From Laetmonice hystrix (Eukaryota), in contig OZ249436.1 in assembly GCA_965235115.1 (NCBI GenBank), forward strand, positions 4,218,001 through 4,282,000: a DNA stretch of 64,000 nucleotides, given 5' to 3'. Below, piece by piece: positions 8,425 to 59,809 of the stretch. A program made the position numbers and the translations under genes. Under the pieces are notes generated by a model. That model did not search any database. It was not told the DNA's origin and worked only from the letters and a program-made list of their open reading frames with translations. Every line of letters begins with the position of its first letter. Position 1 is the first letter of the stretch.

Positions 8425-11400
8425 GTTAGTCACACATAAATCCAGTAAAACCGCATGTTCTTTTTCTCTATTTTCCCCCGCTTAGAGTTCAGTACGGTGA
8501 TGACGCACACGCAGGTGACCTACCACCAGCCGCTAAGCTGGTGGTAGGTCAGTCATTAGCCACCCATGAAAATATGGGGGGGGGGGGGGTCTTCAATATT
8601 CGTGAATTTGAGGCCCTAAGTTTTAGCTAACCTACTCATGTAGGTGAAGTACCATTGCAGAATATTGATTGATGTTTTTCATGACCACCTGCAAGTCCGC
8701 ACGCAGTGTAACTGGAAATTAGAAACCTCATGATTTATTGCTGATTGGCCTTGCTAATTAGTCTGTAATTAGGGAATTGAGCGGTTGGGTGGGGGTGGGG
8801 GAGCCTAAGGTACCGGTAGGCATTTTGAAAAATAATAAAGCCAGAAAACTTTGTGGGGAGTCCTGGTTGACTGGCTCCCTGTGAATGTTGACCGTCTGCC
8901 TGTGAATGTTGACTGTCTGCCTGTGAATGTTGACCTTCTGCCTGTGAATGTTGACCGTCAGCCTGTGAATGTTGACCTTCTGCCTGTGAATGTTGACCGT
9001 CAGCCTGTGAATGTTGACCGTCAGCCTGTGAATGTTGACCGTCAGCCTGTGAATGTTGACCGTCAGCCTGTGAATGTTGACCGTCTGCCTGTGAATGTTG
9101 ACCGTCTGCCTGTGAATGTTGACCGTCAGCCTGTGAATGTTGACCGTCTGCCTGTGAATGTTGACTGTCAGCCTGTGAATGTTGAACGTCAGCCTGTGAA
9201 TGTTGACCGTCTGCCTGTGAATGTTGACCTTCTGCCTGTGAATGTTGACTGTCAGCCTGTGAATGTTGACCGTCTGCCTGTGAATGTTGACCGTCTGCCT
9301 GTGAATGTTGACCGTCTGCCTGTGAATGTTGACCGTCTGCCTGTGAATGTTGACTGTCAGCCTGTGAATGTTGACTGTCAGCCTGTGAATGTTGACCGTC
9401 TGCCTGTGAATGTTGACTGTCAGCCTGTGAATGTTGACCGTCTGCCTGTGAATGTTGACCGTCTGCCTGTGAATGTTGACCGTCTGCCTGTGAATGTTGA
9501 CTGTCAGCCTGTGAATGTTGACCGTCAGCCTGTGAATGTTGACCGTCTGCCTGTGAATGTTGACTGTCAGCCTGTGAATGTTGACCGTCAGCCTGTGAAT
9601 GTTGACTGTCAGCCTGTGAATGTTGACCGTCTGCCTGTGAATGTTGCTGCAGGAAGACGAACGGAGGATTGCCAGTGTCATGGCCCGTAAGGAGGAGGAG
9701 AAGAAACGGGAAACTAACAAGGTGCAAATTATGAAGGTGAGTTCAAACTTGTAATCTAAGCAAAGATTGTACTAGTACAATCTTTGATCTAAGGCCGGGT
9801 GGTACCGGTAGTCAACTTGTGACAGTCATTTGTCACATAAGGGGGTTTTCTGGTAAATTATAGGGTTAGGCCAAATCAACAGCATGATATCAAGGTCAAA
9901 AGTCGTGTATCAAATGACAAATGACACGTTTATTTCGAACATGAACATCAGAGTTCTACATTGTTTAGTTTTAAAACTGTTGTCAAATCTGTGATACAGT
10001 AGGGGCAGATCTAGGAAATATTACGGAGCTAGAACCCCCGTCCCCCTTTCACCATTTTTTTTCTACTAAAGTTTTCAAAAAATGCCTGTTGGACCACACC
10101 TACCAGAACCCAGGATCTGCGGTTATACAATACTTGTTAGCTGCCGTAGAGAATGAATTAATGATTTATTACACAATAATTCTAGAGGAGGGACATTTTG
10201 TGTTGACATTAGGAGCGGCGCCGACTAGCCATCAACAATGCCCGCCGACAGTGGGATGTAATGCAAGGTTCAATCATGGCTCGTACTAACAAGTTAGTAC
10301 GTGGGGCCATGCCTGACCTGGTCGCTAGCCACGTCGGTAACATCCCAAACTCTGACCTCAATGACGACGAGGAGGATGCCGGGTCAAGGTCAGTCAGAGG
10401 TCATTCACTCTCAGGGTCAAGGTTAGGCAGTGCTCACGGGGTGGGCCACTGTAATCCAGACACTGTACAGCGTGGATGGTCCTGATATGTTTGGTTGCAG
10501 AAATTTCATCTCAGTATATTTCAGTTTTCTTTAGTTTGCATGTGTAATTGTGTACCATGTCCTGTATACTTGACCATGCATGTGACCGAGTGGTTTTTAG
10601 TAGTATCTTTTGCTATCTACCCTCTGACAGCATGTGTTTTTTCTGGATCTAAAACCCAAGAGTAGTAGAAAGTCCTTGTTTCAAACCCTGCGCCCCAACC
10701 AGTACCTCACTCCCCCACTGGGATCCAAGTGCAGTTTTGAAAACAACGCATTCATTTCTTTTGCTTACATTTATTGTTTTCATTGCCTGTTGGCTAAAAA
10801 TGAGGAGACATAAGAATTGTGACAAGGTTTCGGTTCTAAAGAAATATGTAATGATATCAAATTAGCCTGTTCAAGGCTGCTAGGTGTACAACCGTCAAAA
10901 ACCTGATATTTCTGTGTTCCAGATGGCTGAAAAACAATTGGCCCCGGGGGTATGTAGATGTTCTGTGTGTCCGCCCCTAACAACAACAACCCCTAGTGGC
11001 CAAAACTGGCATCACATGAGAAATTCAATGTTTCGGTCTTGTAATATACCTCGGACTCTAGTCTCACGTAGACAGATTTCATGTTAACCCAGTTATCCTG
11101 TAAATACGGAGGGTAGCCATCTTAAAGGCAGGGTAAACACCCACGGCAAATAAGGTTCATACACCAAAAGAAACACCAGCATTTACCTCAGGGCAATAAA
11201 TGCCACAATTACGTTGTCTGAATGAAGTAATTAACGTGTAAACGCCCGATGTATGACGCCGCTGGTTCTTACCTTGACCTTCTTGTGTGTTCATCAGAGC
11301 CGAATGCTGCACACCGCAGCGTATTGCGTACCATTACGTGTTACTCTGCTCACAGACCTTGTCTACACGATGTTTGGAGTCCCAACGTTTGTAAACGTCC

Positions 11401-14400
11401 GAGGTGTTGAACACACAAGCAGAACTAGTTGTGTCACACATCGGGCAGTTACACGTTAATTACTTTATTCAGACAACGTAATTGTGTCATTTATTGCCCT
11501 GAGGTAAATGCTGGTGTTTCATTTGGTCTACGAAACCTTACTTGCCGTGGGTGTTTACCCTGCCTTTAACGTTTCACATAGACGGATTTCATGTCAACCC
11601 AGTTATCATGTAAATACGTAGGGTGACCATCAAATCGGTCCCGGCCGCCTTGGTGCTACCCCTGCCCTGTCGTCTGGACCCCCCCCCCCCCACCCCCACC
11701 CCACCCCCACCCTCCCGGCCAGGCCCGGGCTAGCCCATCCTACCCTGGCTGTACAAAGTGAGCACACCACCTCCCATCTTCCGGCCAAGGAGCACCGCTG
11801 TATGTGAGGAAGCATGATTTCTCGCAGTATCAGCGCACAATAATTTTAAGTATGTCACCAGATTTAACGTGTCGTTGTTTATACCATTTGGAAATATCTG
11901 AAGCCTCGAAGGTTTAAAACAGTCATTTGATCATTCCGTGTTTTTGTTAGCACCATTCCTATTGGCCGTCAGTGGGCCAACCAGCATCTGTACCCCAGGA
12001 CTACTAATGCCATCTAGCGGTATAGGTTTCACATTGGTGTATGGGTGTTATATATTTTATGGTGTTTTCAATCTTGACGCGGAGTGTTAAATCAGGTTGA
12101 GTTATACTAAATTCATCTCATCTTTAATTAATTATTTCATATGTTGACAGTGAAGATGCCGTTAGCTGACGTTTTCCACATCAGTTCTGGATCCATGTAT
12201 CATTTACAAGGGCTATGATGAATATTGTCCGTACCGATATCGAGGACTGACATTTTTGTTGTTGTTGTTCCCCATCCTCCAGTAGTGGCAGTCGGCCGAC
12301 CAGCGCCAAGAGTATGGTCTCTGACAGGGACGGTCAGCCAGGGTCACGTGATCCTTCGGCCAGCTCATCACGTGGTACGACTCCCGACAAGGATAAGATC
12401 ACCATCAGGTGGGTGTGTCATCTTCTCACACAGCTTCCTGGCAACAGTTTTCGTCAATGAACTCTTCATTTATTGATATACATGCAGGGTTTCCGCCAGA
12501 GGGTAAAATGGGTAAAATTCCTTACCCTAAAATTTTTCCAGGGTACGGATCCGTACCCTAAAAATCGCTGGGTAACCATTTTTCCATGAAGTGATAAAAA
12601 ACTCCTGATGATGCCTTGAGCAACTTGGAGGAATCAAACAGTATAATGCAGTCTTTATTTGATTAATCCACATATTTGTAACAGCAGTTAGGGTTAGGGT
12701 TATGCTAATCCTAACCCTCACCCTAACCCTCCTCTGGTCCGTACCCTAATTTTTTTTTCTGGCGGAAACCCTGACATGTAGGTGTACACGATGCGGGAGA
12801 GAACTATTAAAAGACTTGTTGTATAGATTGAGTGGTGATTTTCGATACACAGGTCCGTGATTTTGACTTATTTTACCCTTGATGGCGCTGTGTATGTTGA
12901 TGATTTGATGGTGGTGTTTTGACTTATTCTACCCTTGATGGCGCTGTGTATGTAGATGATTTGATGGTGGTGTTTTGACTTATTCTACCCTTGATGGCGC
13001 TGTGTATGTTGATGATTTGATGGTGGTGTTTTGACTTATTCTACCCTTGATGGCGCTGTGTATGTTGATGATTTGATGGTGGTGTTTTGACTTATTCTAC
13101 CCTTGATGGCGCTATGTATGTTGATGATTTGATGGTGGTGTTTTGACTTATTCTACCCTTGATGGCGCTGTGTATGTAGATGATTTGATGGTGGTGTTTT
13201 GACTTATTCTACCCTTGATGGCGCTGTGTATGTTGATGATTTGATGGTGGTGTTTTGACTTATTTTACCCTTGATGGCGCTGTGTATGTTGATGATTTGA
13301 TGGTGGTGTTTTGACTTATTTTACCCTTGATGGCGCTGTGTATGTTGATGATTTGATGGTGGTGTTTTGACTTATTCTACCCTTGATGGCGCTGTGTATG
13401 TAGATGATTTGATGGTGGTGTTTTGACTTATTTTACCCTTGATGGCGCTGTGTATGTTGATGATTTGATGGTGCTGTTTCAGCGGGCCAGTAGGGAGTAA
13501 CTCCTCACTAAACGTTGACTACCTGGCAGAGCTGGATGGCGACACCCTCAACCTGTATGGTTCAGGCGCCCTGGAGGCCCTCGACAAAAACTGGGGCATG
13601 GCGGCCGCTGGCGCTGTCTCAACGATTGTCTTCAAGTTTGTCGACTTTGACGAGGTCTGCAAACACCTGCACAAAATACGGGCGCGGTTCCCTAGCGTAC
13701 ATGTGAGTAGATGAGACGGAGGGTGTGAATAGATGAGGCGGAGGGTGTGAGTAGATGAGTCTCAGGGTGTGAGTAGATGAGGCTCAGGGTGTGAGTAGAT
13801 GAGGCTCAGGGTGTGAGTAGATGAGGCTCAGGGTGTTCCAGTGTCATCTCTCCATCCTCAACGAGAAGGTTCCTGCATGTTTCTTGGTTAGAGTGTAATT
13901 ATCTTAATCACATATCGGAATCCTGTTTTTGTCAAGCACAAGTCTTTGTGTAAATGTATTGTTCTATGAGTTACGGTTCACATTGTTGGTAAGGTCATAC
14001 GTTTAGATACCTGCGTTACCAAAAAACAAAAGTTTTTCTTCCTCACGTCTCGTTCTCACACACTGCCTGCCCTCTGGTCGGCCAGTCAGAGGACCTGGAC
14101 ATGCAAAGGTCATCATGTCCAGTCTGCACTGAAAAAATGACCAATACTTGCTATTTCTGGAGGAATTGACTGCATCCATTGGTTGCGATTTAAAACGTTC
14201 TGGAAGCAAGAGTTGATTTAAGATATATTTTTGGGAAGTACATGGACGTCACCTGTAGGTGCTATACGTCGGGTGAGTGCGTGACATTTTAGTTCACAGT
14301 TTTACCGTTGGCAGGCATGGAGTTGTATAGATTAATACATCTTGGCGAGGACTACTGTACAGTTATATGGTAATAGAAAAGAGAGAAGGCTGCAGGCAAT

Positions 14401-17400
14401 TTTGCCTTGAAACTTATACAGGTGAGGGTCGACTTTGGCTGGCTTGTACTGTGCCAGGAACGCTATGGAACTGGTCAAGGGGCTCGCTACAGCCAGACTG
14501 GGCAGGTCAGGGGGATGTTACAGCCAGACTGGACAGGTCAGGGGGATGTTACAGCCAGACTGGGCTGGTCAGGGGACGTTACAGCCAGACTGGGCAGGTC
14601 AGGGGGTGTTACAGCCAGGCTGGGCTGGTCAGGGGGATGTTACAGCCAGGCTGGACTGGTCAGGGGGTGTTACAGCCAGGCTGGGCTGGTGAGGGGGTGT
14701 TACAGCCAGGCTGGGCTGGTCAGGGGATGTTACAGCCAGACTGGGCTGGTCAGGGGGATGTTAAAGCCATGCTGGACTGGTCAGAGGGTTGTTACAGCCA
14801 GGCTGGACTGGTCAGGGCGATGTTACAGCCAGGCTGGGCTGGTCAGGGGGTGTTACAGCCATGCTGGACTGGTCAGGGGGTGTTACAGCCAGACTGGGCT
14901 GGTCAGGGGGATGTTACAGCCAGGCTGGACTGGTGAGGGGATGTTACAGCCAGACTGGGCTGGTCAGGGGATGTTACAGCCATGCTGGACTGGTCAGGGG
15001 ATGTTACAGCCAGGCTGGACTGGTCAGGGGGTGTTACAGCCAGGCTGGGCTGGTCAGGGGGTGTTACAGCCAGGCTGGGCTGGTCAGGGGATGTTACAGC
15101 CAGACTGGGCTGGTCAGGGGGATGTTAAAGCCATGCTGGACTGCTCAGGGGGTTGTTACAGCCAGGCTGGACTGGTCAGGGCGATGTTACAGCCAGGCTG
15201 GGCTGGTCAGGGGGTGTTACAGCCATGCTGGACTGGTCAGGGGGTGTTACAGCCAGACTGGGCTGGTCAGGGGGATGTTACAGCCAGGCTGGACTGGTGA
15301 GGGGATGTTACAGCCAGACTGGGCTGGTCAGGGGATGTTACAGCCATGCTGGACTGGTCAGGGGGTGTTACAGCCAGGCTGGACTCGTCAGAGGATGTTA
15401 CAGCCAGACTGGGCAGGTCAGGGGCAGGGATGAAAGTTTTCAGGAAATTTCCTGAAATCAGGAAATTTGAAAAAATCCCCCCCCAAGAAATAACACCCAA
15501 AAAAGGAAATAGGCCTAGATCTATAGGCAAAAGAGGTAGGCCTAAGCCAAGGCTAAGTATTGCCCTGGACTGTGTGGTGGGCAATTAATATCAAATGAAA
15601 CAATATCCCCTTCCAGGACGTTTTTTAACACCATGCAGCTCAATATATCTCTACCTGCCAAAGTTCGTTTATAGATGGGGATATTAGAGTGTCTCAAACC
15701 CGTTCAGTGTCACGGGTGCCACCGTGCATAGGCCGGTCTGCCGGGGGTGCTGGTCCCTGTAGCTGTGGTGACATCGCTCACATAGACCGGCCCGCGTGGG
15801 CTGGCTTCTACCGGCACGCGGTGGCGTCTGTCCCCTCTGGCAGGCACGGCCCCGTGTCGCTGTGGTGAGAGCGACTCACCTCAGGTAATGACTTCAGGCA
15901 AAATTGATGGTCAGGCAGCTGCGAAGCCCGTTGATTCAGGCTTGCCATTATGCCATATCCATGCGCGAGTTTTGCCTGAGCGCTCACTTAGTGAACGAGA
16001 CTATAGTATAGACAGACCGGTCTGTCTAGTCCCGGCGTTGGTGATAGTGATTAGGCTGACGAACTTTGCACCATCACAATGTCACTCCTCACAGGAAACT
16101 GGGTCAATTTAGTTCTATGAATCTGCCTAGTATATATGTCAGTAAGTTCTCATAATGTGTTCTTGCATATAAATTTGAGGATAGTGGCATTACGTAAGTG
16201 GTTTTCACTGAAGTTTTGGGGTTGTCAGGACTTTTCATTACATTTGTCGATCAGTGCAGGTGTCCTGATAAGACCGGAAGTGACAATTTTCACAACAACA
16301 TGAGTGGCACATGGACACACGGGCTGAACCACTCGACTCAGCGAAGCCTGTGTTGCTTGGCTGAGAGCCGCTGAGGGTCGTGACTGCTGAGGGTCAAGAC
16401 TGATGGACAGCCTGTGTGGTCAGTCTAACACATGGAAGCTGTTTGACAACGTAATCGGTTGCATTTTGGACGCTAAAAGCCGACTGGATTCCAATGTTGG
16501 AGAGAGACGGCAGAGCCAGGCAGAGGTTGACATGCACTGACTGTGACTGAGTGACAGGCAAGCAACAGCCTTGAACAGGGGCATGGACTGATGAGTGATG
16601 GAGTCTATCCAGCAAATTTGCAGGGGTGGGGGGTTGACTAAATACTGAGGGCTAGGCCCTATAATATATAATAGCTAGGAGGCCTTATCGGATCATGACT
16701 GTCTGCTGTTCATAGCCTGACTTTTTAAGGGGGGGGGGGGTAAGCCTTGGATGTGCGCATGAACAAATATTAATTATGGACATTGGCCCCCGCCGCTCCC
16801 CCCCGGTCAGAATTTCAGGAAATTTTACAGCTGGCCACTTTCATCCCTGCAGGGGGGTGTTACAGCCATGCTGGACTGGTCAGGGGGTGTTACAGCCATG
16901 CTGGACTGGTCAGGGGGATGTTACAGCCAGACTGGACTGGTCAGGGGAATGTAACAGCCAGACTGGGCTGGTCAGGGGGATGTTACAGCCAGACTGGGCT
17001 GGTCAGGGGGATGTTACAGCCAGACTGGGCTGGCCAGGGGGATGTTACAGCCAGTCTGGACTGTCCTGGGGGCTGTTACAGCCATGCAGACCTGGCCAGG
17101 GGGACTGGCCTGCCAGTCGGTTACAGCCAGTCCGAACTGTCTGGCCTGGCAGTCGGTTACAGCCAGTCCGGACTGTCTGGCCTGGCAGTGGGTTACAGCC
17201 AGTCCAGACTGTCCTGGCCTGGCAGTCGGTTACAGCCAGTCCGGACTGTCTGGCCTGGCAGTGGGTTACAGCCAGTCCGAACTGTCTGGCCTGGCAGTGG
17301 GTTACAGCCAGTCCAGACTGTCTGGCCTGGTAGTCGGTTACAGCCAGTCCAGACTGTCCTGGCCTGGCAGTCGGTTACAGCCAGTCCAGACTGTCCTGGC

Positions 17401-20400
17401 CTGGCAGTCGGTTACAGCCAGTCCGAACTGTCTGGCCTGGCAGTCGGTTACAGCCAGTCCAGACTGTCCTGGCCTGGCAGTCGGTTACAGCCAGTCCAGA
17501 CTGTCCTGGCCTGGCAGTCGGTTACAGCCAGTCCGGACTGTCTGGCCTGGCAGTCGGTTACAGCCAGTCCGGACTGTCTGGCCTGGCAGTCGGTTACAGC
17601 CAGTCCGGACTGTCTGGCCTGGCAGTCGGTTACAGCCAGTCCAGACTGTCTGGCCTGGTAGTCGGTTACAGCCAGTCCAGACTGTCCTGGCCTGGCAGTC
17701 GGTTACAGCCAGTCCGGACTGTCTGGCCTGGCAGTGGGTTACAGCCAGTCCGGACTGTCTGGCCTGGCAGTCGGTTACAGCCAGTCCAGACTGTCTGGCC
17801 TGGTAGTCGGTTACAGCCAGTCCAGACTGTCCTGGCCTGGCAGTCGGTTACAGCCAGTCCGGACTGTCTGGCCTGGCAGTGGGTTACAGCCAGTCCGGAC
17901 TGTCTGGCCTGGCAGTGGGTTACAGCCAGTCCGGACTGTCTGGCCTGGCAGTCGGTTACAGCCAGTCCAGACTGTCTGGCCTGGTAGTCGGTTACAGCCA
18001 GTCCAGACTGTCTGGCCTGGCAGTCGGTTACAGCCAGTCCGAACTGTCTGGCCTGGCAGTGGGTTACAGCCAGTCCGAACTGTCTGGCCTGGCAGTGGGT
18101 TACAGCCAGTCCAGACTGTCCTGGCCTGGCAGTCGGTTACAGCCAGTCCAGACTGTCCTGGCCTGGCAGTCGGTTACAGCCAGTCCGGACTGTCTGGCCT
18201 GGCAGTGGGTTACAGCCAGTCCAGACTGTCCTGGCCTGGCAGTCGGTTACAGCCAGTCCGGACTGTCTGGCCTGGCAGTCGGTTACAGCCAGTCCAGACT
18301 GTCTGGCCTGGCAGTGGGTTACAGCCAGTCCGGACTGTCTGGCCTGGCAGTGGGTTACAGCCAGTCCGGACTGTCTGGCCTGGCAGTGGGTTACAGCCAG
18401 TCCAGACTGTCCTGGCCTGGCAGTCGGTTACAGCCAGTCCAGACTGTCCTGGCCTGGCAGTCGGTTACAGCCAGTCCGGACTGTCTGGCCTGGCAGTGGG
18501 TTACAGCCAGTCCAGACTGTCTGGCCTGGCAGTCGGTTACAGCCAGTCCGGACTGTCTGGCCTGGCAGTCGGTTACAGCCAGTCCAGACTGTCTGGCCTG
18601 GCAGTGGGTTACAGCCAGTCCGGACTGTCTGGCCTGGCAGTGGGTTACAGCCAGTCCAGACTGTCTGGCCTGGCAGTGGGTTACAGCCAGTCCAGACTGT
18701 CTGGCCTGGCAGTGGGTTACAGCCAGTCCGGACTGTCTGGCCTGGCAGTGGGTTACAGCCAGTCCGGACTGTCTGGCCTGGCAGTGGGTTACAGCCAGTC
18801 CAGACTGTCCTGGCCTGGCAGTGGGTTACAGCCAGTCCAGACTGTCTGGCCTGGTAGTCGGTTACAGCCAGTCCGAACTGTCTGGCCTGGCAGTGGGTTA
18901 CAGCCAGTCCAGACTGTCTGGCCTGGTAGTCGGTTACAGCCAGTCCGAACTGTCTGGCCTGGCAGTCGGTTACAGCCAGTCCAGACTGTCTGGCCTGGCA
19001 GTGGGTTACAGCCAGTCCAGACTGTCCTGGCCTGGCAGTCGGTTACAGCCAGTCCAGACTGTCTGGCCTGGTAGTCGGTTACAGCCAGTCCGAACTGTCT
19101 GGCCTGGCAGTGGGTTACAGCCAGTCCAGACTGTCCTGGCCTGGCAGTCGGTTACAGCCAGTCCAGACTGTCCTGGCCTGGCAGTCGGTTACAGCCAGTC
19201 CAGACTGTCCTGGCCTGGCAGTCGGTTACAGCCAGTCCGGACTGTCTGGCCTGGCAGTCGGTTACAGCCAGTCCGGACTGTCTGGCCTGGCAGTCGGTTA
19301 CAGCCAGTCCGGACTGTCTGGCCTGGCAGTCGGTTACAGCCAGTCCGGACTGTCTGGCCTGGCAGTCGGTTACAGCCAGTCCGGACTGTCTGGCCTGGCA
19401 GTCGGTTACAGCCAGTCCGGACTGTCCTGGGGGCTGTTACAGCCATGCAGACCTGGCCAGGGGGACTGGCCTGCCAGTCGGTTACAGCCAGTCCGGACTG
19501 TCCTGGCGGCTGTTACAGTCTCCGTGATGGCACATCGAACAGTCAGGGAGGGTTGTGCCCCCAGAGATTGTGATGAGTTAGAAGATGATGTTGTAAGGAG
19601 CACGGTAAACAACCCGACCCTTGGCACACACCCAAACACCGCCTCCATACACAGACGGGTATTGGTGACGTAGGTTTGCTGACGTCACAATGAAACGGGT
19701 GGATTGTTGAAAACTCCCCTGGATAGAAAGATGCAGCATGGTTGACGGACTGACCAGTAAGTAGCGTACCCAAGGGGGGTACTTGGGGTGCGCAAGCACC
19801 CCGCTCAATTTGCCCATTTTTTTTTTTTTTGGTGCGCTTGTTGCCCACAGCCCCCTCACAATTTGCAGCGCCTACAACGTTGGTTATTTCCAGCACCCCC
19901 TTGGGTCCAGTTTCTGGGTACGCCACTGCTGACCCCAGCGTCTGTGGAGGTCAGTGAAGAGGAGCTGGATGACTCCATGATCCATGATCAATAAGTCCGG
20001 TGTCCGAGTGGCGCAAACACTTTGATCTCAACCCGTGCCGGGCTATCAGAGGCTGCCAACTGTTGGTAGAAACAGTAGCATGTCTACAAACCGACTAGAT
20101 GGGCCTTCAACCGGACTACACCAACATACTGGTCTTAGTTACCGGGCAGTGGGGTCAGTCAGCGGGAACCTACCGACCTCACCAATGCCGTGAGGGGACT
20201 GACAGTGGGTAAAATGTCACATTTTAAAAGGTTAGTACCGTTATGTACCAACTCCCAAAACTTCGGTTCACTTAGGTTTAGTTACTCTTCTACTTCTTAT
20301 AAAAACGCAACATCCAGGCTTGCCGTTATATTTTTTTTATAAAAGCAACCTGGTCATTGTTTTCCAGGGGATACCGGCGATCCCTTACTTTATTAAACTG

Positions 20401-23400
20401 CTCAAGTTTAAGTCTTGTAATCTTAAAGGGGCAATTGAAAGAATCGCACTTTTCAACAGTTTTTGAATCTTTTGTGAGGCATTCTATAGTTAAATACGAA
20501 ACATAAAAAATTTGGGCGAATGCTGTTGTCTTGGCCGAGAAATGGCATCACTTCCAGCGGGGTCACTTTGGTCCACGCCCTCACCACAATGATTAATTAC
20601 TGAATGTCGATATGTATACACCGACATTCACTTTGTGGGCTCCCTGTGGCTTGATTACACGCCAATCAACGCTATTCTCAGGGTAGAAATATTTATTTCG
20701 GACGTTTTTATGCTATCATATAAGAAAACGTCAGTCGAAAATTTGTGCCCTTTTGTCAAAGTTTGAATAGGAAACGTGAAGTGAAGGCGAGGTAAAACAG
20801 GGGGACCTAGAATAGAGGTGTGGCCTTGGCCGTCCGATTAGATTTGATGTATACAACATGTATGAAGCAGTGTGGTCACTCTGCTAGCCTCCTGTGATCA
20901 GCGTGTGAATAATGGAGAGCTGAGAGACGCTAGCAAAGGTCATGACTCTTGAGGATACCTGGCGCCAGGAGTGATGTAGCGTCAGCGTCAGTAGTGCCAG
21001 CCTCGGACCCTCACACCGTATGAGCTAATCGCGGGGGTGAGGGTGGGGACCCTGGGGTGTGGGGTGGAGACCCTGGGGTGTGGGGTGGGGACCCTGGGGT
21101 GTGGGGTGGAGAGATTGCCGTAAATCATCTGTAGTGCTGAAAGGAAGCATGTATGTAAGAGTTGACACAGTCCAGCAAACAATGGTTACTTGTATGTAAG
21201 GGTTGACACAGTCCAGCAAACAATGGTTACTTGTATGTAAGAGTTGACACAGTCCAGCAAACAATGGTTACTTGTATGTAAGGGTTGACACAGTCCAGCA
21301 AACAATGGTTACTTGTATGTAAGGGTTGACACAGTCCAGCAAACAATGGTTACTTGTATGTAAGGGTTGACACAGTCCAGCAAACAATGGTTACTTGTAT
21401 GTAAGAGTTGACACAGTCCAGCAAACAATGGTTACTTGATCATTGATTTGCCATCACTCTCCAGCAATCGATGAGGGCCTCATGTTGCGTGACATCCTGG
21501 CGGTAATTATTCTAACGATGATAATTATTCATGAGAGGGTCAACTTAGCAGTTGTGTGTATGTGATTAAAACGATTGCTTTATAATCGGCTGTCGTAATG
21601 GAAGCGCAGACATGTACTGAATAGTATCGCCAGCCATGACTGAATAGTATCGCAGCCATGACTGAATTGTATCGCAGTCATGACTGAATAGTATCGCCAG
21701 CCATGACTGAATAGTATCGCAGCCATGACTGAATAGTATCGCAGCCATGACTGAATAGTATCGCAGTCAAGACTGAATAGTATCGCAGCCATGACTGAAT
21801 AGTATCGCAGCCATGACTGAATTGTATCGCAGCCATGACTGAATTGTATCGCAGTCATGACTGAATAGTATCGCCAGCCATGACTGAATAGTATCGCAGC
21901 CATGAAGCAGCTGATGTGATGAATAGTCTGTCTCCATAATTGTGTTTTTCCTTCCTAGACCCTGAACTTCAGTGCCACCAACATCCACAGTTTACAACAG
22001 TTGAATGCCCTGGGTGCCCTCCGTCGCCTTGACAACTTGTTCATCCAACCCGAGGGAAACGCCGTGACGTCATTCGCGTTGTGGCGACCTTACGTCCTCT
22101 TCAGGCTGGCACATTTTGCACTGAAAAAAATTAATGATGTCGAGGTAAGTTTGGCATTTTGCCAAGAGTTTAAAATTAAGTAAATAAACCGAAACCCACA
22201 AAAAAAGTAATAAAGTTAGGAGTGGAAACAAAGTCAGCATGAAGTCAGGATGATAACTTTTACGTTTGGCGTTCAAATAATCTTGTTGTTCCAGATTACT
22301 GCCGGAGATATTGTCAACGCAGAGAAGTTCTTTGGGCCATTGGCGCAGATCACGACTTCCCATCTTCCTTCTTCACGGCTGTCCAATCTACTGGGAGAAA
22401 ACAAGTAAGTTTGTTCACTGCAGTCCAGATTTATCAGTTATAGGGCATTTTGTAGTTACAACGGGCACTATTTCCCGGAATTATGGTTGTGGTGTATTTT
22501 GATAGCAGAAAGTTGATTTAGTGTTTTCATGTTACCGTTTGTGTGATGATTGTAATGGAGGTTGTCATTGGTTACCAGGAGGAGGCAGCGATTGGCTGTT
22601 ACCGACGACAAACTGCGCAAGGCGTATTTTTATAGCAGAAAGTTGATTTTGTTGTTTCATGTTACCGTTTGTGTGATGATTGTAATGGAGGTTGTCATTG
22701 GTTACCAGGAGGAGGCAGCTATTGGCTGTTACCGACGACAAACTGCGCAAGGCGTATTTTGATAGCAGAAAGTTAATTTATTGTTTCATGTTACCGTTTG
22801 TGTGATGATTGTAATGGAGGTTGTCATTGGTTACCAGGAGGAGGCAGCGATTGGCTGTTACCGACGACAAACTGCGCAAGGCGTATTTTGATAGCAGAAA
22901 GTTAATTTATTGTTTCAATCTTTCATGTTACCGTTTGTGTGATGATTGTAATGGAGGTTGTCATTGGTTACCAGGAGGAGGCAGCTATTGGCTGTTACAG
23001 AGGACAAACTGCGCAAGCCGACAGACACTAAGTTGACTGAGAGAACGTCGGTGGAATCGGTTGGTCGGGCCGGACTACTTTATGCTGCGCCAGACACGCT
23101 CCATCAAAAACTTCACGTGAGTGATCAGGCACCTCTGCCAAAACCTTCTGCGCAAGATGGTCCTATTTTCCTGGGTCAGCGTATTTCTGAAAGCTTTAGT
23201 TGCCAGTTTGCTGTTTGAACTTTCGTCAAACGATTCACCAAAGGCCAAGTCAGGACCATTTTGAAAACCAGTTCTCGTGCCATATTTTGACAGTTCTAAC
23301 GTTAGTTTTTATATTGTGTAATTTTTTGGCGTGTGAAAAGTGTATTTTTTCATGTTGTAGGAGCAGCAGAGTCGGCAGGATTTCGTGAGGTCCTACATAA

Positions 23401-23561
23401 AGGACTTGTCTCGAGAAGCTTTAAATGTTAACCAAAAGAGGGCAGCACTGCGGCAAGCCTGGCCCGCAGTGTTGGAGGAAATGGTACGCAGTGCGTTAGT
23501 CGATATGTGGGACATTTCAGCTTACATGAAACGTTGTCTGGAAGACTTAGAAAAGAGCTAG
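8277..23561 (+). CDS. LRRC49: Leucine-rich repeat-containing protein 49 (tubulin polyglutamylase complex / centriolar satellite protein), 3' part. Coding exons 8277-8424, 9653-9736, 10213-10388, 12283-12408, 13483-13702, 21959-22144, 22295-22404, 22975-23116, 23361-23561; 5' exons upstream of window
   Basis: Hand-spliced at GT-AG sites with consistent phases into one open frame. Peptides DGNPFSQDPAYKQAVLRHMQQLRQLDMKRVT|EDERRIASVMARKEEEKKRE, YLAELDGDTLNLYGSGALEALDKNW and LWRPYVLFRLAHFALKKIN match vertebrate LRRC49 as recalled (no search run). Confidence 0.93.
8878..9646. repeat. 21-bp minisatellite (cctgtgaatgttgaccgtc[a/t]g), about 36 copies, abutting LRRC49 acceptor 9652
   Basis: Direct inspection; explains ORFs 8735..9727, 8758..9720 and 8851..9690. 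Confidence 0.97.
9653..9736 (+). CDS. LRRC49: LRRC49 exon (EDERRIASVMARKEEEKKRETNKVQIMK)
   Basis: gctgcag|...aag|gtgagt; 84 nt, phase 0 to 0. Confidence 0.92.
10213..10388 (+). CDS. LRRC49: LRRC49 exon (ERRRLAINNARRQWDVMQG...DDEEDAGS)
   Basis: acattag|...ag|gtcagt; N-terminal part resembles vertebrate EKKRLTINNVARQWD; 3' end inferred from donor and phase. Confidence 0.85.
11126..11565. mobile_element. Non-autonomous TIR element (MITE) with ~130-bp imperfect TIRs and TTAA target site; Kolobok-like termini
   Basis: TTAA(11122-25)|AGGCAGGGTAAACACCCACGGCAA … TTGCCGTGGGTGTTTACCCTGCCT|TTAA(11566-69). Confidence 0.85.
12283..12408 (+). CDS. LRRC49: LRRC49 Ser/Gly/Arg-rich linker exon (SGSRPTSAKSMVSDRDGQPGSRDPSASSSRGTTPDKDKITI)
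   Basis: Pyrimidine tract ctccag|...cag|gtgggt; 126 nt, phase 2 to 2, open. Not conserved by recall, so supported by splice signals and frame only. Confidence 0.7.
12485..12773. mobile_element. MITE, 16-bp perfect TIR CAGGGTTTCCGCCAGA, 5-bp TSD ACATG (hAT-like termini)
   Basis: ACATG(12480-84)|CAGGGTTTCCGCCAGA…TCTGGCGGAAACCCTG|ACATG(12774-78); internal TACCCTAA/TAACCC subterminal motifs. Confidence 0.85.
12861..13476. repeat. 56-bp minisatellite, 11 copies, abutting LRRC49 acceptor 13482
   Basis: ttttgacttattctacccttgatggcgctgtgtatgttgatgatttgatggtggtg. Confidence 0.97.
13483..13702 (+). CDS. LRRC49: LRRC49 exon (…YLAELDGDTLNLYGSGALEALDKNWG…RARFPSVH)
   Basis: gtttcag|...cat|gtgagt; 220 nt, phase 2 to 0. 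Confidence 0.93.
13703..13834. repeat. 22-bp tandem repeat x6 starting exactly at LRRC49 donor (gtgagtagatgaggctcagggt)
   Basis: Direct inspection. Confidence 0.93.
14488..17060. repeat. 30-31 bp G-rich minisatellite (gttacagccagactgggctggtcaggggat), interrupted by a transposon at 15425-16849
   Basis: Arrays at 14488-15424 and 16850-17060 have the same unit. Confidence 0.95.
15425..16849. mobile_element. 1.4-kb non-autonomous DNA transposon, 13-bp TIR CAGGGATGAAAGT, apparent 6-bp TSD CAGGGG (hAT-like)
   Basis: CAGGGG(15419-24)|CAGGGATGAAAGT … ACTTTCATCCCTG|CAGGGG(16850-55); subterminal TCAGGAAATTT motifs at both ends; no transposase ORF recognised. Confidence 0.8.
17110..19505. repeat. 36-37 bp minisatellite (gttacagccagtccggactgtctggcctggcagtcg), about 65 copies
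   Basis: Direct inspection; explains ORFs up to 564 aa. Confidence 0.97.
19755..19928. mobile_element. Short MITE, TIR CAGT(AAGT)AGCGTACCCA / TGGGTACGCCACTG, 5-bp TSD CTGAC
   Basis: CTGAC at 19750-54 and 19929-33 flanking inverted termini. Confidence 0.65.
21150..21439. repeat. 41-bp tandem repeat x7 (tgtatgtaagggttgacacagtccagcaaacaatggttact)
   Basis: Direct inspection. Confidence 0.95.
21615..21905. repeat. 22-23 bp minisatellite (catgactgaatagtatcgcagc), about 13 copies, ending ~50 bp before LRRC49 acceptor 21958
   Basis: Direct inspection. Confidence 0.95.
21959..22144 (+). CDS. LRRC49: LRRC49 exon (TLNFSATNIHSLQQLNALGALRRLDNL…FRLAHFALKKINDVE)
   Basis: cttcctag|...gag|gtaagt; 186 nt; overlaps ORF 22001..22183. 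Confidence 0.93.
22295..22404 (+). CDS. LRRC49: LRRC49 exon (ITAGDIVNAEKFFGPLAQITTSHLPSSRLSNLLGEN)
   Basis: gttccag|...aa|gtaagt; 110 nt, phase 0 to 2. Confidence 0.9.
22494..23017 (+). repeat. ~130-bp tandem repeat x4 spanning an LRRC49 intron/exon junction
   Basis: Acceptor ggttaccag|gaggaggcag at 22578, 22708, 22837 and 22974. Confidence 0.95.
22975..23116 (+). CDS. LRRC49: LRRC49 exon (RRQLLAVTEDKLRK…VGRAGLLYAAPDTLHQKLH)
   Basis: ttaccag|...cac|gtgagt; 142 nt, phase 2 to 0; uses the last of four duplicated acceptors. Confidence 0.85.
23361..23561 (+). CDS. LRRC49: LRRC49 terminal coding exon (EQQSRQDFVRSYIKDL…AYMKRCLEDLEKS*)
   Basis: gttgtag|; TAG stop at 23559-23561; WP and YMK motifs as in the vertebrate C-terminus. 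Confidence 0.92.
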   Translation, partial: EQQSRQDFVRSYIKDLSREALNVNQKRAALRQAWPAVLEEMVRSALVDMWDISAYMKRCLEDLEKS

Positions 23562-47924: not shown

Positions 47925-50382
47925 GTAATGGTCCCATTCTGATGATGTCCGGTGATGGTATACAGGAAAGTTTCCTCCTCAAACACGCAGGGATAACCAA
48001 GTAATGGTCCCATTCTGATGATGTCTGGTGATGGTATACAGGAAAGTTTCCTCCTCCTCAAACACGCAGGGATAACCAAGTAATGGTCCCATTCTGATGA
48101 TGTCTGGTGATGGTATACAGGAAAGTTTCCTCCTCAAACACGCAGGGATAACCAAGTAATGGTCCTATTCTGATGATGTCTGGTGATGGTATACAGGAAA
48201 GTTTCCTCCTCAAACACGCAGGGATAACCAAGTAATGGTCCCATTCTGATGATGTCTGGTGATGGTATACAGGAAAGTTTCCTTCTCCTCAAACACGCAG
48301 GGATAACCAAGTAATGGTCCCATTCTGATGATGTCTGGTGATGGTATACAGGAAAGTTTCCTCCTCCTCAAACACGCAGGGATAACCAAGTAATGGTCCC
48401 ATTCTGATGATGTCTGGTGATGGTATACAGGAAAGTTTCCTCCTCAAACACGCAGGGATAACCAAGTAATGGTCCCATTCTGATGATGTCTGGTGATGGT
48501 ATACAGGAAAGTTTCCTCCTCAAACACGCAGGGATAACCAAGTAATGGTCCCATTCTGATGATGTCTGGTGATGGTATACAGGAAAGTTTCCTCCTCAAA
48601 CACGCAGGGATAACCAAGTAATGGTCCCATTCTGATGATGTCTGGTGATGGTATACAGGAAAGTTTCCTCCTCCTCAAACACGGAGGGATAACCAAGTAA
48701 TGGTCCCATTCTGATGATGTCTGGTGATGGTATACAGGAAAGTTTCCTCCTCAAACACGCAGGGATAACCAAGTAATGGTCCCATTCTGATGATGTCTGG
48801 TGATGGTATACAGGAAAGTTTCCTCCTCCTCAAACACGCAGGGATAACCAAGTAATGGTCCCATTCTGATGATGTCTGGTGATGGACAGGAAAGTTTTCT
48901 CCTCCTCAAACACGCAGGGATAACCAAGTAATGGTCCCATTCTGATGATGTCTGGTGATGGTATACAGGAAAGTTTCCTCCTCAAACACGCAGGGATAAC
49001 CAAGTAATGGTCCCATTCTGATGATGTCTGGTGATGGTATACAGGAAAGTTTCCTCCTCAAACACGGAGGGATAACCAAGTAATGGTCCCATTCTGATGA
49101 TGTCTGGTGATGGTATACAGGAAAGTTTCCTCCTCCTCAAACACGCAGGGATAACCAAGTAATGGTCCCATTCTGATGATGTCTGGTGATGGTATACAGG
49201 AAAGTTTCCTCCTCCTCAAACACGCAGGGATAACCAAGTAATGGTCCCATTCTGATGATGTCTGGTGATGGTATACAGGAAAGTTTCCTCCTCAAACACG
49301 CAGGGATAACCAAGTAATGGTCCCATTCTGATGATGTCCGGTGATGGTATACAGGAAAGTTTCCTCCTCCTCAAACACGGAGGGATAACCAAGTAATGGT
49401 CCCATTCTGATGATGTCTGGTGATGGTATACAGGAAAGTTTCCTCCTCAAACACGCAGGGATAACCAAGTAATGGTCCCATTCTGATGATGTCTGGTGAT
49501 GGTATACAGGAAAGTTTCCTCCTCCTCAAACACGCAGGGATAACCAAGTAATGGTCCCATTCTGATGATGTCTGGTGATGGACAGGAAAGTTTTCTCCTC
49601 CTCAAACACGCAGGGATAACCAAGTAATGGTCCCATTCTGATGATGTCTGGTGATGGACAGGAAAGTTTTCTCCTCCTCAAACACGCAGGGATAACCAAG
49701 TAATGGTCCCATTCTGATGATGTCTGGTGATGGTATACAGGAAAGTTTCCTCCTCAAACACGCAGGGATAACCAAGTAATGGTCCCATTCTGATGATGTC
49801 TGGTGATGGTATACAGGAAAGTTTCCTCCTCAAACACGGAGGGATAACCAAGTAATGGTCCCATTCTGATGATGTCTGGTGATGGTATACAGGAAAGTTT
49901 CCTCCTCAAACACGCAGGGATAACCAAGTAATGGTCCCATTCTGATGATGTCTGGTGATGGTATACAGGAAAGTTTCCTCCTCAAACACACAGGGATAAC
50001 CAAGTAATGGTCCCATTCTGATGATGTCTGGTGATGGACAGGAAAGTTTCCTCCTCAAACACGCAGGGATAACCAAGTAATGGTCCCATTCTAAAGATGT
50101 CAGGTGATGGTATACAGGAAAGTTTCCTCCTCAAACACGCAGGGATAACCAAGTAATGGTCCCATTCTGATGATGTCTGGTGATGGTATACAGGAAAGTT
50201 TCCTCCTCAAACACGCAGGGATAACCAAGTAATGGTCCCATTCTGATGATGTCTGGTGATGGTATACAGGAAAGTTTCCTCCTCAAACACGCAGGGATAA
50301 CCAAGTAATGGTCCCATTCTGATGATGTCTGGTGATGGTATACAGGAAAGTTTCCTCCTCAAACACGCAGGGATAACCAAGT
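47925..50382. repeat. 76-79 bp minisatellite (gtaatggtcccattctgatgatgtctggtgatggtatacaggaaagtttcctcctcaaacacgcagggataaccaa), about 32 copies
   Basis: Direct inspection. Confidence 0.97.
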
Positions 50383-55439: not shown

Positions 55440-55490
55440 GTCATGATGACGTAACCAACTCCGTTTCGTGGCACGTCACGTCATAAGAAG
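55440..55490 (+). promoter_or_regulatory. CRE-like motifs (TGACGTAA at 55447; ACGTCACGTCA at 55473) about 100-140 bp upstream of the CatSper3 ATG
   Basis: Motif match by eye only; function not shown. Confidence 0.3.
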
Positions 55491-55587
55491 ACGACATTAC
55501 AAGTTTGTTAGCTCCATGTGCTAATATTTAGTACCTACGAAAGCGGGAAAGGTTATTGTTAATCCATAATACACGAAGGAGGTGAAG

Positions 55588-56112
55588 ATGACGCCTACAA
55601 CAGTAGATGGAGAGGGAGAGGGCCTGACACTGGGTGACAGAATCGTCAAGTCAGTGACGAACAACCTGAACAGTTTCTCCCGTTTTAAAAAACAACAAGC
55701 CCGAAGACGCTGCGATGCTCAGTTTCACAAAACCATCCGCAGAATCACGGAGTCATCATCTTTTAACGGATTCATCATGTCCGTTATTTTTATCAATGCT
55801 ATTATTATGGCTATGGAGAGCGAGGACGTGTTCGACGTACCTGATTGGCAGTTCGCATTTAAAGTTTTAGATTACACATTTCTGTTGATCTACCTGGTGG
55901 AGTTCCTGCTCAAGGTGTACGCCGAACCGGTCAATTACTGGAGCAGTGGATACAACATCTTTGACTTCACGACTTTGGTGACATCCATGGCACAGGTGAT
56001 CATATCGTGGGCACATCTGGGCGGCGAATCACGACTCCAAGCTCTCAGAGTACTCAGAGCTCTGCGAACTCTCCGAATGTTGAGGACCGTTTCCTTCATC
56101 CGGGGACTTCAG
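55588..56112 (+). CDS. CATSPER3: CatSper3 exon 1 (N-terminus, S1-S4)
   Basis: ORF 55582..56148; ATG at 55588; cag|gtcgga donor; start codon is inferred. Confidence 0.88.
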
Positions 56113-59100
56113 GTCGGACTCAGGCAGCAGCCTTTTCTAACTAATTAAAATGAAATAAATACAAATACTAGCAGATCAGGTAGAATATCATGAAGATAAA
56201 TGTAACTTGCATTGACCAGGTTCTGGTGGTCTGTGTTTTTCATGTGGTAGAATATGATGATAACTGTAACTTGCATTGACCAGGTTCTGGTGGTCTGTGT
56301 TTTTCATGTGGTAGAATATGATGATACATGTAACTTGCATTGACCAGGTTCTAGTGGTCTGTGTCGTATACTGTGGTACAATATGATGATAAATGTAACT
56401 TGCATTGACCAGGTTCTAGTGGTCTGTGTCGTATACTGTGGTACAATATGATGATAAATGTAACTTGCATTGACCAGGTTCTAGTGGTCTGTGTTTTTCA
56501 TGTGGTAGAATATGATGATAAATGTAACTTGTATTGACCAGGTTCTGGTGGTCTGTGTTTTTCATGTCATACTGTGGTATAAATGTAATACGGTACTTGC
56601 ATTGACCAGGTTCTGGGGGTCTGTGTCGTATACTGTGGTAGAATATGATGATAAATGTAACTTGCATTGACCAGGTTCTAGTGGTCTGTGTCGTATACTG
56701 TGGTAGCATATGATGATAAATGTAACTTGCATTGACCAGGTTCTGGTGGTCTGTGTTTTTCATGTGGTAGAATATGATGATAAATGTAACTTGTATTGAC
56801 CAGGTTCTAGTGGTCTGTGTTTTTCATGTGGTAGAATATGATGATAAATGTAACTTGTATTGACCAGGTTCTAGTGGTGGCCCTCATTGACACCATCAGG
56901 AAGTGGGTGATCAGCATCCTGGCCCTCCTTCTCCTCCTCATGTTCCTGTTCGGTATCATGGGGTATTACTTCTTCGGTTACCCGGATGTCGGTGACAAGG
57001 AGAACTGGGGGACACTTGGTGCTGCCTTGCTAACCTTGTTCAGTTATGTGACGGTAAGCTAAACACACGCCCATCTTATGGCTATAGACTACAGTATGTG
57101 TATCATAAATTAATATTTCATTAACAGACATTTACTGATTTAGTACTGTTAACACTCCTGAAAATAAAGTATCAGGCACCATATTGTTCAAGAAGGTGCT
57201 CTTTTTCTCTTTTTCTTTTCACTAAAATTAGATGCACAACGTTTTTGTAGAATCCCGAGAGAAATGTTTCCATCGGACGATGATAAACATGATGAATTTA
57301 TTGATAAAGGTATTGTTAGTATAGATCATTGACACTACAGGTTGACGGATGGACCGACCAGCAGGATCGACTCGACAATCTGAACTTCGGAGCGGCTTCC
57401 AGGGTTTACACCATTATTTTTATCGTTCTTGGTCACTTCATCTTCAGTAACGTTTTCATCGGTGTGGTCATCATGAACATATCGGAGGCCACCGAGCTCT
57501 ATAAGGTACGTACAGGTATCGGTGTGGTCATCATGAACATATCAGTATCGGTGTGGTCATCATGAACATATCGGAGGCCACCGAGCTCTATAAGGTACGT
57601 ACAGGTATCGGTGTGGTCATCATGAACATATCGGAGGCCACCGAACTCTATAAGGTACGTACAGGTATCGGTGTGGTCATCATGAACATATCGGAGGCCA
57701 CCGAACTCTATAAGGTACGTACAGGTATCGGTGTGGTCATCATGAACATATCGGAGGCCACCGAACTCTATAAGGTACGTACAGGTATCGGTGTGGTCAT
57801 CATGAACATATCGGAGGCCACCGAGCTCTATAAGGTACGTACAGGTATCGGTGTGGTCATCATGAACATATCGGAGGCCACCGAACTCTATAAGGTACGT
57901 ACAGGTATCGGTGTGGTCATCATGAACATATCGGAGGCCACCGAACTCTATAAGGTACGTACAGGTATCGGTGTGGTCATCATGAACATATCGGAGGCCA
58001 CCGAACTCTATAAGGTACGTACAGGTATCGGTGTGGTCATCATGAACATATCGGAGGCCACCGAACTCTACAAGGTACGTACAGGTATCGGTGTGGTCAT
58101 CATGAACATATCGGAGGCCACCGAGCTCTATAAGGTACTCACTATACTGTACTCATAATCCTGTTCCCCTCGGTCAAATCTCAGTTTTAATTCAACTTTA
58201 TTTAGGTAAGTTTCTTAATATTTTGCTATTAAGAGTCAGAAGGGCGACCCCCCGCCCTCCCATTAGATATAGATTGAAATTGTGGAAATAAGTTTTCAGA
58301 TTTGCAAGTAAACATACATAAGTAGAGCCTCTATATAAATAATAATTTAATAAATAAAGCAGTGACATAATTGTTATTACGATTTTTATTGTAATAGAAT
58401 GAATTCACTCTCAGTGGCAGTATCTCAGTATCTCACGATGTAGTATGGTATTATAGTAGAATGAATTCACTCTCAGTGGCAGTATCTCAGTATCTCACGA
58501 TATATTATGGTATGGATATACGGATAAACAATCTACATCTGTCATTGCCATGATATGACGAGAAGAATAGATATAATGTACATCTAGACCTATAATTCCA
58601 TTAATCTCTGTCGCTTGTCGCGTGTGGCCATACAGACAGAGCAGGAGTCGGAGCGGGCAGCCATCCTACACAACAAGAAGGAATTCATGATGATACGTCA
58701 ACATAACGATGTCAAACAGATGCTCGAACGCCAGGTGATGACCGTTAGCATGACCACGGCATTGTGTCCACCGTGGGAAAACCCTAATTAGAACACAATG
58801 GTTAATTAGAAATATATCTCAGCCGAATCATCAGGCATTGCGTGTGGATGTAATCAAAGCCAATACCGGATTTATTCTCTCCGATAACATCTGAAAGTGA
58901 GCGTTAAGAAATCATTTAGCGAGTCGCCATAATGAAGAGTTCGCCTGATGTACTTGGAAAAAGTATTTGACCTTTTCTTTATCTTTTTCAATTATTCCGT
59001 CTAGAAACGAGGAAAATACTCGAATTTTGAAGAGATGGTGCACGAGTTCCAGAAGGGTCTTTGTCACAACGATGTGGTCTTTATGACGGATTTGTGCGCC

Positions 59101-59809
59101 AACCTTTTCTGGCTGGAAGCCTTCATCTTAACACTAGACCACATGGACACCACCATGGGCAGGTACACTCCGTTATATCTAAGTATATCATCTGGTCAAA
59201 GTAATACTAACACTAGATCACATGGACACCACCATGAGCAGGTACCAACTCCGTTATATCTAAGTATATCATCTGGTCAAAGTAATACTAACACTAGATC
59301 ACATGGACACCACCATGAGCAGGTATACCAACTCCGTTATATCTAAGTATATCATCTGGTCAAAGTAATACTAACACTAGATCACATGGACACCACCATG
59401 AGCAGGTACCAACTCCGTTATATCTAAGTATATCATCTGGTCAAAGTAATACTAACACTAGACCACATGGACACCACCATGAGCAGATACCAACTCCGTT
59501 ATATCTAAGTATATCATCTGGTCAAAGTAATACTGCTATTACTTTACTATATTCTCCATGTTGTTTGTATAATATTTTACAATTCGACTATACAGGATCA
59601 ATAGTAAACCATCAGTATAAGATCGCTTTTCAATTTTTGCATATATAACTTGCCATGTAACGACTGTCCATTCCTTGGTGGTGCCACGATAAACTGACGG
59701 ACTGTAGTTCCGAGATTCCGTTTCCAGGGTGCAGCAGCTGCATTTTGAGGTTGCCAACGTCTTGGCTGTCGCAATGGAAACGAAGCTGAGTAAAAAATAC
59801 GGCATGTAA
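55588..59809 (+). CDS. CATSPER3: Cation channel sperm-associated protein 3-like (CatSper alpha subunit), 404 aa. Exons 55588-56112, 56868-57053, 57341-57505, 58636-58734, 59005-59162, 59728-59809
   Basis: Spliced frame is open from ATG to TAA. Single 6-TM channel domain: S4 LRVLRALRTLRMLR, pore TLFSYVT|VDGW, S6 FIFSNVFIGVVIMNI, coiled-coil C-terminus. TVDGW is the CatSper3-type filter (CatSper1 TLDDW, CatSper2 TLDHW, CatSper4 TQDGW). Confidence 0.9.
56178..56878 (+). repeat. ~64-65 bp tandem repeat x11 containing the CatSper3 exon-2 acceptor
   Basis: …aatgtaacttgcattgaccag|gttct[a/g]gtggt repeated; the last copy is the functional one. Confidence 0.95.
56868..57053 (+). CDS. CATSPER3: CatSper3 exon 2 (S5 and pore helix)
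   Basis: tgaccag|gttcta...acg|gtaagc; 186 nt. Confidence 0.9.
57341..57505 (+). CDS. CATSPER3: CatSper3 exon 3 (VDGW filter and S6)
   Basis: actacag|...aag|gtacgt; 165 nt. Confidence 0.9.
57458..58138 (+). repeat. 60-bp tandem repeat of the last 48 nt of CatSper3 exon 3 plus donor: exonic original, one truncated copy, 10 full copies
   Basis: Donor-like aag|gtac at 57506, 57595, 57655 … 58135; ORF 57553..58158. Confidence 0.97.
58636..58734 (+). CDS. CATSPER3: CatSper3 exon 4 (TEQESERAAILHNKKEFMMIRQHNDVKQMLERQ)
   Basis: catacag|...cag|gtgatg; 99 nt; coiled-coil-like. Confidence 0.85.
59005..59162 (+). CDS. CATSPER3: CatSper3 exon 5 (KRGKYSNFEEMVHEFQKGLCHNDVVFMTDLCANLFWLEAFILTLDHMDTTMG)
   Basis: cgtctag|...ag|gtacac; 158 nt. 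Confidence 0.87.
59128..59535 (+). repeat. ~80-bp tandem repeat x5 spanning the CatSper3 exon-5 donor
   Basis: …ggacaccaccatg[g/a]gcag|gta at 59163, 59242, 59323, 59406; fifth copy has ag|at at 59487. Confidence 0.95.
59728..59809 (+). CDS. CATSPER3: CatSper3 terminal exon (VQQLHFEVANVLAVAMETKLSKKYGM*)
   Basis: tttccag|; phase 2; TAA at 59807-59809. Confidence 0.87.

Follow-up and report, generated by a model that had tools for sequence, protein, structure and literature searches.

Minisatellites at splice junctions of LRRC49 and CatSper3 in Laetmonice hystrix: mirage-type arrays that probably arise without targeting to exon borders

Seven of the 27 splice sites of two genes, LRRC49 and CatSper3, on a 64,000-nt stretch of the Laetmonice hystrix genome (the window; C1:4218001–4282000 of an assembly of 627 Mb in 35 contigs) carry a tandem array that crosses the junction or ends a few bases before it. 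We conclude that these arrays are a clear instance of the known class of “mirage” minisatellites in a further lineage. They probably arose without being targeted to junctions, and probably have no function of their own. An initial annotation had instead proposed a process which nucleates, or tolerates, tandem duplications at exon borders. Nucleation was not supported by an independent set of genes chosen regardless of their repeats, where arrays spanning a junction are about as frequent as random placement into short introns would give.

By homology, the window contains the final nine coding exons of LRRC49 (8277–23561; exons 8277–8424, 9653–9736, 10213–10388, 12283–12408, 13483–13702, 21959–22144, 22295–22404, 22975–23116 and 23361–23561) and the complete CatSper3 with six coding exons (55588–59809; exons 55588–56112, 56868–57053, 57341–57505, 58636–58734, 59005–59162 and 59728–59809). 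Both genes, and their arrays in the window, are given on the + strand, and tandem repeats make up about 30% of the window's bases. Junctions were called with a purpose-written spliced protein-to-genome aligner, and the orthologue queries P0023 and P0003 recovered all 27 of them. Some poorly conserved LRRC49 junctions were shifted by two of the three LRRC49 queries, none by P0023. Three joints and one loose end of the LRRC49 exon model are matched by a contig of the sequencing run X4; its earlier exons lie upstream of the window. In a quick tree with 28 relatives (one annelid, zero brachiopods), the spliced LRRC49 protein was placed among lophotrochozoans (98 in the Shimodaira–Hasegawa-like approximate likelihood ratio test, SH-aLRT), outside molluscs and nemerteans, beside Owenia without resolution and separate from three Branchiostoma rows. 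The 128 open frames of at least 62 codons outside repeats in the window had no Pfam match, which is a weak negative, as the LRRC49 exon control had none either.

Tandem Repeats Finder (TRF) detected all seven arrays at the junctions named in the initial annotation, with units of 21–130 bp, 4–37 copies and 89–98% matches. Six of the proposed unit sizes were borne out, the 65-bp unit being 64–65 bp long, while the unit given as 80 bp measures 81 bp. Five of the seven span their junction. In LRRC49, a 22-bp minisatellite (13702–13836, 6 copies) starts at the last exon base before donor 13703, thus containing 1 exon nt, and has 5 spare GT donors with an exon-side context weaker than that of the real donor. 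Further downstream, a 130-bp mirage (22494–23017, 4 copies) extends across acceptor 22974 and includes 43 exon nt and 3 intact spare acceptors. The three remaining ones belong to CatSper3: a 64–65-bp mirage (56190–56878, about 11 copies) across acceptor 56867 with 11 exon nt and 10 intact spare acceptors, which occupies most of a 755-nt intron (130 nt when collapsed); a 60-bp mirage (57458–58138) across donor 57506 with 48 exon nt and 10 spare donors; and an 81-bp mirage (59129–59534, 5 copies) across donor 59163 with 34 exon nt, one of its spare donors being mutated and 3 intact. As had been claimed, five arrays therefore contain the GT or AG signal itself, with 31 intact spare sites in total (5, 3, 10, 10 and 3). 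The other two stop short of the final intron base, a 21-bp minisatellite (8866–9646, about 37 copies) in LRRC49 intron 8425–9652 by 6 nt and a 56-bp minisatellite (12861–13479, 11 copies) in LRRC49 intron 12409–13482 by 3 nt. The former has an internal TCAG in 17 copies, though not in the last full one, and the unit of the latter is intronic throughout and without the acceptor AG.

That the arrays reach into the intron and spare the exon was also correct. However, this is a built-in consequence of any tandem duplication crossing a junction, since the exon remains complete ahead of the first copy when a donor is duplicated and behind the last copy when an acceptor is. A few details of the spanning arrays were recorded in addition. 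The CatSper3 60-bp unit is open in the exon frame and would read as a 20-residue repeat. A 29-nt partial copy after the first unit (57506–57594) shifts the frame, and every distal donor leads to a stop; one unit junction of the same array has 8 additional bases resembling a copy of the neighbouring donor sequence. Upstream, about 2777–2114 nt before the window starts, an eighth LRRC49 mirage with 6 copies of a 112-bp unit crosses an acceptor. It includes 47 exon nt and 5 intact spare AGs and is stacked behind a 29-bp and a 24-bp array which occupy the remaining intron.

The seven units are unrelated to each other (pairwise local score at most 10), in agreement with the initial annotation, which had further considered each array a private amplification. 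In a genome search whose counts are lower bounds, the 56-, 130-, 64–65-, 60- and 81-bp units matched their own locus only, in keeping with a private origin of these five. This does not extend to the 21- and 22-bp arrays, which have look-alikes of 65–78% at six and two other places, respectively. A dispersed or mobile satellite family, with one unit at many unlinked loci, was not found by this search, five of the seven arrays being single-locus on those lower-bound counts.

Since the window had been picked for its pattern, an independent gene set was built. Dynein heavy-chain genes were found by a Pfam search and annotated by protein alignment: two complete genes, part of another one and 14 short pieces (17 stretches in total), providing 210 introns (176 well aligned on both sides) and 50 arrays. 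Units below 10 bp, arrays with more than 75% of one base, and eight arrays in introns cut by a stretch end were excluded from this count. As a null, each array was collapsed to one unit, and the ancestral unit was placed randomly among the positions overlapping the collapsed intron. Nine of the 50 dynein arrays span a junction versus 9.6 expected (9.5 with pooled introns), giving a maximum-likelihood rate ratio of 0.88 (95% interval 0.35–2.0); spanning arrays in excess of random placement were thus not found in these unselected genes. Restricting the count to confident introns (7 versus 8.2) or to arrays of at least three copies (8 versus 8.3) gave the same result, and counting a partial terminal copy as part of the footprint lifts the expectation to 11.4. 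With the eight arrays of cut-off introns, of which 2 span versus about 1.3 expected, the balance is about 11 against 11. Arrays touching a junction (within 10 nt) numbered 15 versus 12.4 expected (P = 0.19), and 6 versus 2.8 ended at most 10 nt inside the intron (P = 0.05). Overall, about 2% of the dynein junctions (9 of 420) bear a spanning array.

The probable explanation lies in intron length. The median dynein intron has about 197 nt with arrays collapsed, and because collapsed introns are so short, a random unit of 20–130 bp crosses a junction in about one of five cases, which is the rate observed. Within the window, the chance of junction contact given the array's own intron is 0.57–0.92 for three of the seven arrays. 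Enrichment at junctions as a general property, as claimed initially, was therefore not confirmed, and nine arrays of the window itself lie mid-intron. The control suggested in the initial annotation, i.e., shuffling full-length arrays within present introns, was run as well and does yield an enrichment (15 versus 4.7 expected, P = 6e-7). This enrichment is false, because the array itself often makes up most of the intron, and the shuffle was rejected as a null in favour of the collapsed one.

The breakpoints also follow the pattern expected of random breaks. The exon share of spanning units is even, from 0.05 to 0.80 (15 arrays, Kolmogorov–Smirnov P = 0.28), and donors and acceptors are spanned about equally often (7 and 8 of 77 arrays). 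Of 59 arrays that have three or more copies and match at 90% or above, 27 deviate in length from a whole number of units by no more than 3 nt versus 11.4 expected (P = 1.4e-6), which points to clean duplications with little flanking repeat, at junctions or elsewhere.

A different picture was obtained for exons. The assumption that selection removes exon-internal arrays agrees with the dynein set, in which only two were seen, both short, in-frame and two-copy, versus about 17 expected. No such depletion is seen for spanning arrays, of which 14 of 15 have intact decoys, with scores like those of real sites in most. The one case with dead decoys is a 61-bp acceptor-spanning array in the C18 dynein gene, in which nine inner copies have GG for AG and only the terminal copy keeps AG. 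In two dynein-gene arrays, a 72-bp acceptor array (36 copies, C10) and a 78-bp donor array (16 copies, C18), the decoys are in-frame and stop-free; nonsense-mediated decay is therefore not a precondition for such arrays. Selection favouring frameshifting or stop-bearing decoys was considered as well and left no signal, as 3 of 15 nearest-decoy extensions keep the frame versus about 5 expected.

DNA and RNA support was assessed for LRRC49 using four runs of a single sample (X1–X4), the short contigs of which were mapped to window positions 21900–24200. No run is on record as RNA; X4 was judged RNA-like from the behaviour of its contigs. In the DNA-like runs X1–X3, words of the 130-bp unit have depths of 174.5, 260.2 and 240.6 versus 51.9, 57.6 and 63.3 for the flanks. 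This is about 3.4–4.5 times the flanks and agrees with about four copies, although the measure is rough and comes from one sample, possibly the assembly's own. An assembly artefact, named initially as a possible refutation, was thus rejected for the 130-bp array, the one array tested. Contig 25 of X4 consists of exons only and skips three GT..AG introns. It joins 22404 to 22975, bypassing all 3 spare acceptors of the 130-bp array. Before 21959, its loose end matches the exon that ends at 13702 over the final 30 nt, so that the first donor of the 22-bp array was used. Hence, the claim that identical decoys are ignored was confirmed at the two LRRC49 arrays reached by this contig. The contig shows only normal joints, and as contigs drop rare forms, low-level use of decoys could escape. 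In addition, an X4 contig over the LRRC49 3′ region (23553–24200) is about 20-fold deeper than the spliced LRRC49 contig and may come from another, overlapping transcript, the contigs giving no strand.

We propose that the arrays form and persist as follows. The genome produces many short, local tandem duplications (about 15–130 bp) that end cleanly, have hardly any or no repeat sequence in their flanks and vary tenfold in rate between regions; this pattern is visible in the arrays, and the repair route may be, for example, end joining or slippage. A link of the clean ends to polymerase theta was considered and is not claimed. A two-copy seed may then grow by unequal exchange or slippage, whereby inner copies homogenise and the terminal copy with the real site is excluded. 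This fits the differences shared among inner copies as well as the amphioxus globin data. With pre-expansion introns of about 200 nt, a random unit would cross a junction about once in five, as counted for the dynein genes, and the exon counts suggest that selection clears duplications lying wholly within exons and hardly affects those spanning junctions. Finally, the spliceosome would pick the site beside the intact exon, i.e., the first donor or the last acceptor, restoring the normal mRNA; junction-spanning arrays would be tolerated for this reason. This last step is based on the two LRRC49 arrays and the one RNA-like contig, and is extended to the remaining arrays by analogy with the human gene F7. 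As the arrays enlarge the intron, they come to look anchored at its ends.

Several observations weigh against an origin without targeting. The window, which has 13 introns and was picked for its pattern, contains 16 intronic arrays, of which 7 are in contact with a junction where 3.3 (P = 0.004) or, with pooled introns, 2.3 (P = 0.003) would be expected, and over all 77 arrays the touch ratio is 1.98 (1.03–3.7). In a bin chosen post hoc as one of several examined, 5 arrays stop 0–6 nt short of the acceptor end, versus 1.1 expected overall (P = 0.005); the dynein genes alone account for 3 versus 0.9 (P = 0.06). Array density in the window is 1.2–1.6 per collapsed kb in the two genes versus 0.44 between them. 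Further, the control is one gene family with 50 arrays and compatible with a 1.5- to 2-fold bias, and a mutational bias toward junctions which is offset by selection would yield an equal count. The touch count of the window, the flush ends at acceptors and the higher density within the genes could be expected if duplications were started at exon borders by splicing- or transcription-coupled breaks or R-loops, the bias being modest and most evident at the 3′ splice site, and the 22-bp array, sitting on the donor of an intron of 4.1 kb when collapsed (touch chance 0.02), fits such nucleation, too. Nevertheless, we consider it unlikely. The independent set has no spanning excess, breakpoints are not piled up at the junction given the uniform exon share, and the short collapsed introns alone provide the observed one in five. 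The flush excess at acceptors is not significant without the window (P = 0.04–0.06), and array densities of gene and flank are inconsistent in three dynein regions (0.37/0.46, 0.17/0.34 and 1.93/1.42), with no consistent excess in genes. A junction-directed origin is therefore not supported by the independent set, although a bias that is less than about twofold, or acts at acceptors alone, would be compatible with it. Were a 1.5- to 3-fold bias from germline splicing- or transcription-coupled damage to set breakpoints at or just inside 3′ splice sites, partly masked by selection against decoys, then this bias, together with the about 2% of junctions carrying near-neutral decoy stacks in 200-nt introns, would provide thousands of natural constructs for studying splice-site choice and intron origin. 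We give this combination little chance.

The flush ends at acceptors could also be read as a barrier effect: arrays would begin anywhere, and their instability would erode or convert the flanking intron up to the branch point, pyrimidine tract or AG, so that ends gather at acceptors. Accordingly, zero arrays end 1–10 nt inside an exon next to the five ending 0–6 nt from the acceptor end, and in three of these five the terminal copy appears truncated or diverged just before the real AG. However, the bins on either side of the AG are near expectation when summed, trimming of a diverged last copy by TRF may account for the flush excess, and the clean whole-unit ends in most arrays argue against much erosion. 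A barrier is quite improbable on this evidence. We regard a function of the arrays, i.e., spare sites for regulated unproductive splicing, stepwise intron removal or raw material for new exons or introns, as very improbable. The intact decoys of most arrays, with scores like those of real sites, would suit such a role, the accessible text of PMC1557585 names human genes using the nearest pseudo-sites, and mirages have been proposed as a route of intron gain (PMC3087553, accessible text). On the other hand, units are unrelated and arbitrary in length and frame, array frequency equals the neutral expectation, and the one RNA-like contig has normal joints only (rare forms would not show). Intron gain by tandem duplication, to which the initial annotation had linked the arrays, finds no counterpart either: none of 77 arrays in 229 introns contains both ends of an intron, and hence there is no sign of ongoing intron gain here.

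The closest known system is that of amphioxus, compared here on the basis of the accessible text of PMC3087553 and PMC3902484. There, mirage minisatellites were described in Adh3, the globins BflGb6 and BflGb9, troponin C and PGBD5, the latter two added by PMC3902484, and PMC3087553 proposed them as a substrate of intron gain. As in amphioxus, where units have 10–160 bp, the unit spans the exon–intron boundary at donors as well as acceptors, many copies retain AG or GT, splicing stays normal, and inner copies are homogenised with the terminal ones excluded. Five window arrays fit the mirage definition by unit size, boundary span and repeated GT or AG, and one contig shows normal mRNA from the authentic site at the 22-bp donor array and the 130-bp acceptor array, two of the seven. 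In contrast to amphioxus, the host is a lophotrochozoan and not a lancelet, and the junction lies outside two of the seven arrays. Amphioxus mirages are reported to be polymorphic in length and somatically unstable; the four runs used here come from one sample. A count of mirages against a null is absent from the accessible text of both papers.

A second parallel is the 37-bp variable number tandem repeat (VNTR) in intron 7 of human F7 (PMC1557585, accessible text), in which mutagenesis shows that identical pseudo-donors are functional and only the most upstream one is used. The first unit spans the donor, identical pseudo-sites follow downstream and the most upstream site is chosen; the first donor was also the one used at the 22-bp array here. 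Given this use of the first of identical donors, the “unusually strict” exon definition assumed in the initial annotation is unneeded. Similar repeats are mentioned there for human 6-16, CBS, LMNB2 and PDGF. These F7-type repeats concern few human loci and donors only, unlike the arrays here, which occur at about 2% of dynein junctions, as often at acceptors and in introns of about 200 nt. With the tandem-duplication model of intron gain (Rogers 1989; Zhuo 2007; Gao and Lynch 2009, as cited in the accessible text of PMC3087553), the arrays share duplicated AG- or GT-bearing segments within genes. However, the model requires a new donor and a new acceptor inside the duplicated segment, whereas the introns at which the arrays lie already exist. 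For an earthworm metallothionein, minisatellites in introns and exon duplications that are not transcribed have been described (PMC12783039, accessible text), though not under the name of mirages. A search which most subscription papers lay outside returned neither a published lophotrochozoan mirage nor a published comparison of junction-array counts with a null.

Other arrays of the window were recorded as well. The 8.3-kb LRRC49 intron contains eight mid-intron arrays (14470–21905; units of 30, 16, 31, 36, 31, 21, 41 and 22 bp; TRF), all more than 50 nt from a junction and left out of the earlier count. Its 30-, 31- and 36-bp arrays (14470–19527) have a common core, GTTACAGCCAG, and appear to have seeded each other. 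Consequently, the arrays of this gene are not all independent events. In CatSper3 intron 3, a 62-bp two-copy duplication (58387–58513; TRF) lies 122 nt from the acceptor and is a non-junction array. A 45-bp array of 30 copies in the 9.9-kb LRRC49 intron (window 1–1210 and the preceding 150 nt) has acceptor-like sequence before it and donor-like sequence 17 nt after it. Nearby are a 146-codon open frame (1636–2076) with no Pfam match and CCGGAAG-rich DNA (about 5940–5990); array, frame and CCGGAAG-rich DNA may represent a candidate nested transcript in this intron. Two intergenic arrays (38827–41383, 45 bp, 57 copies; 47925–50382, 76 bp, 32 copies) have a donor-like GTAATG in the unit and no known exon at their position. 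Over the window and the C10, C18 and C29 stretches, array density is spread about tenfold by region (0.17–1.9 per collapsed kb), with 9–47% of bases in tandem repeats.

The finding is modest, in that this class of repeat is already known and the nucleation reading fails its test. The combination of short introns, frequent local duplications and selection against copies inside exons yields the observed rate of mirages, so that no special mechanism is required. Shuffling present-day arrays within present-day introns is a misleading control and should be avoided. Arrays at junctions can also mislead gene prediction. Finally, even introns of about 200 nt appear to carry stacks of identical decoys almost neutrally, and this genome thus lends itself as a panel on which splice-site choice can be measured.

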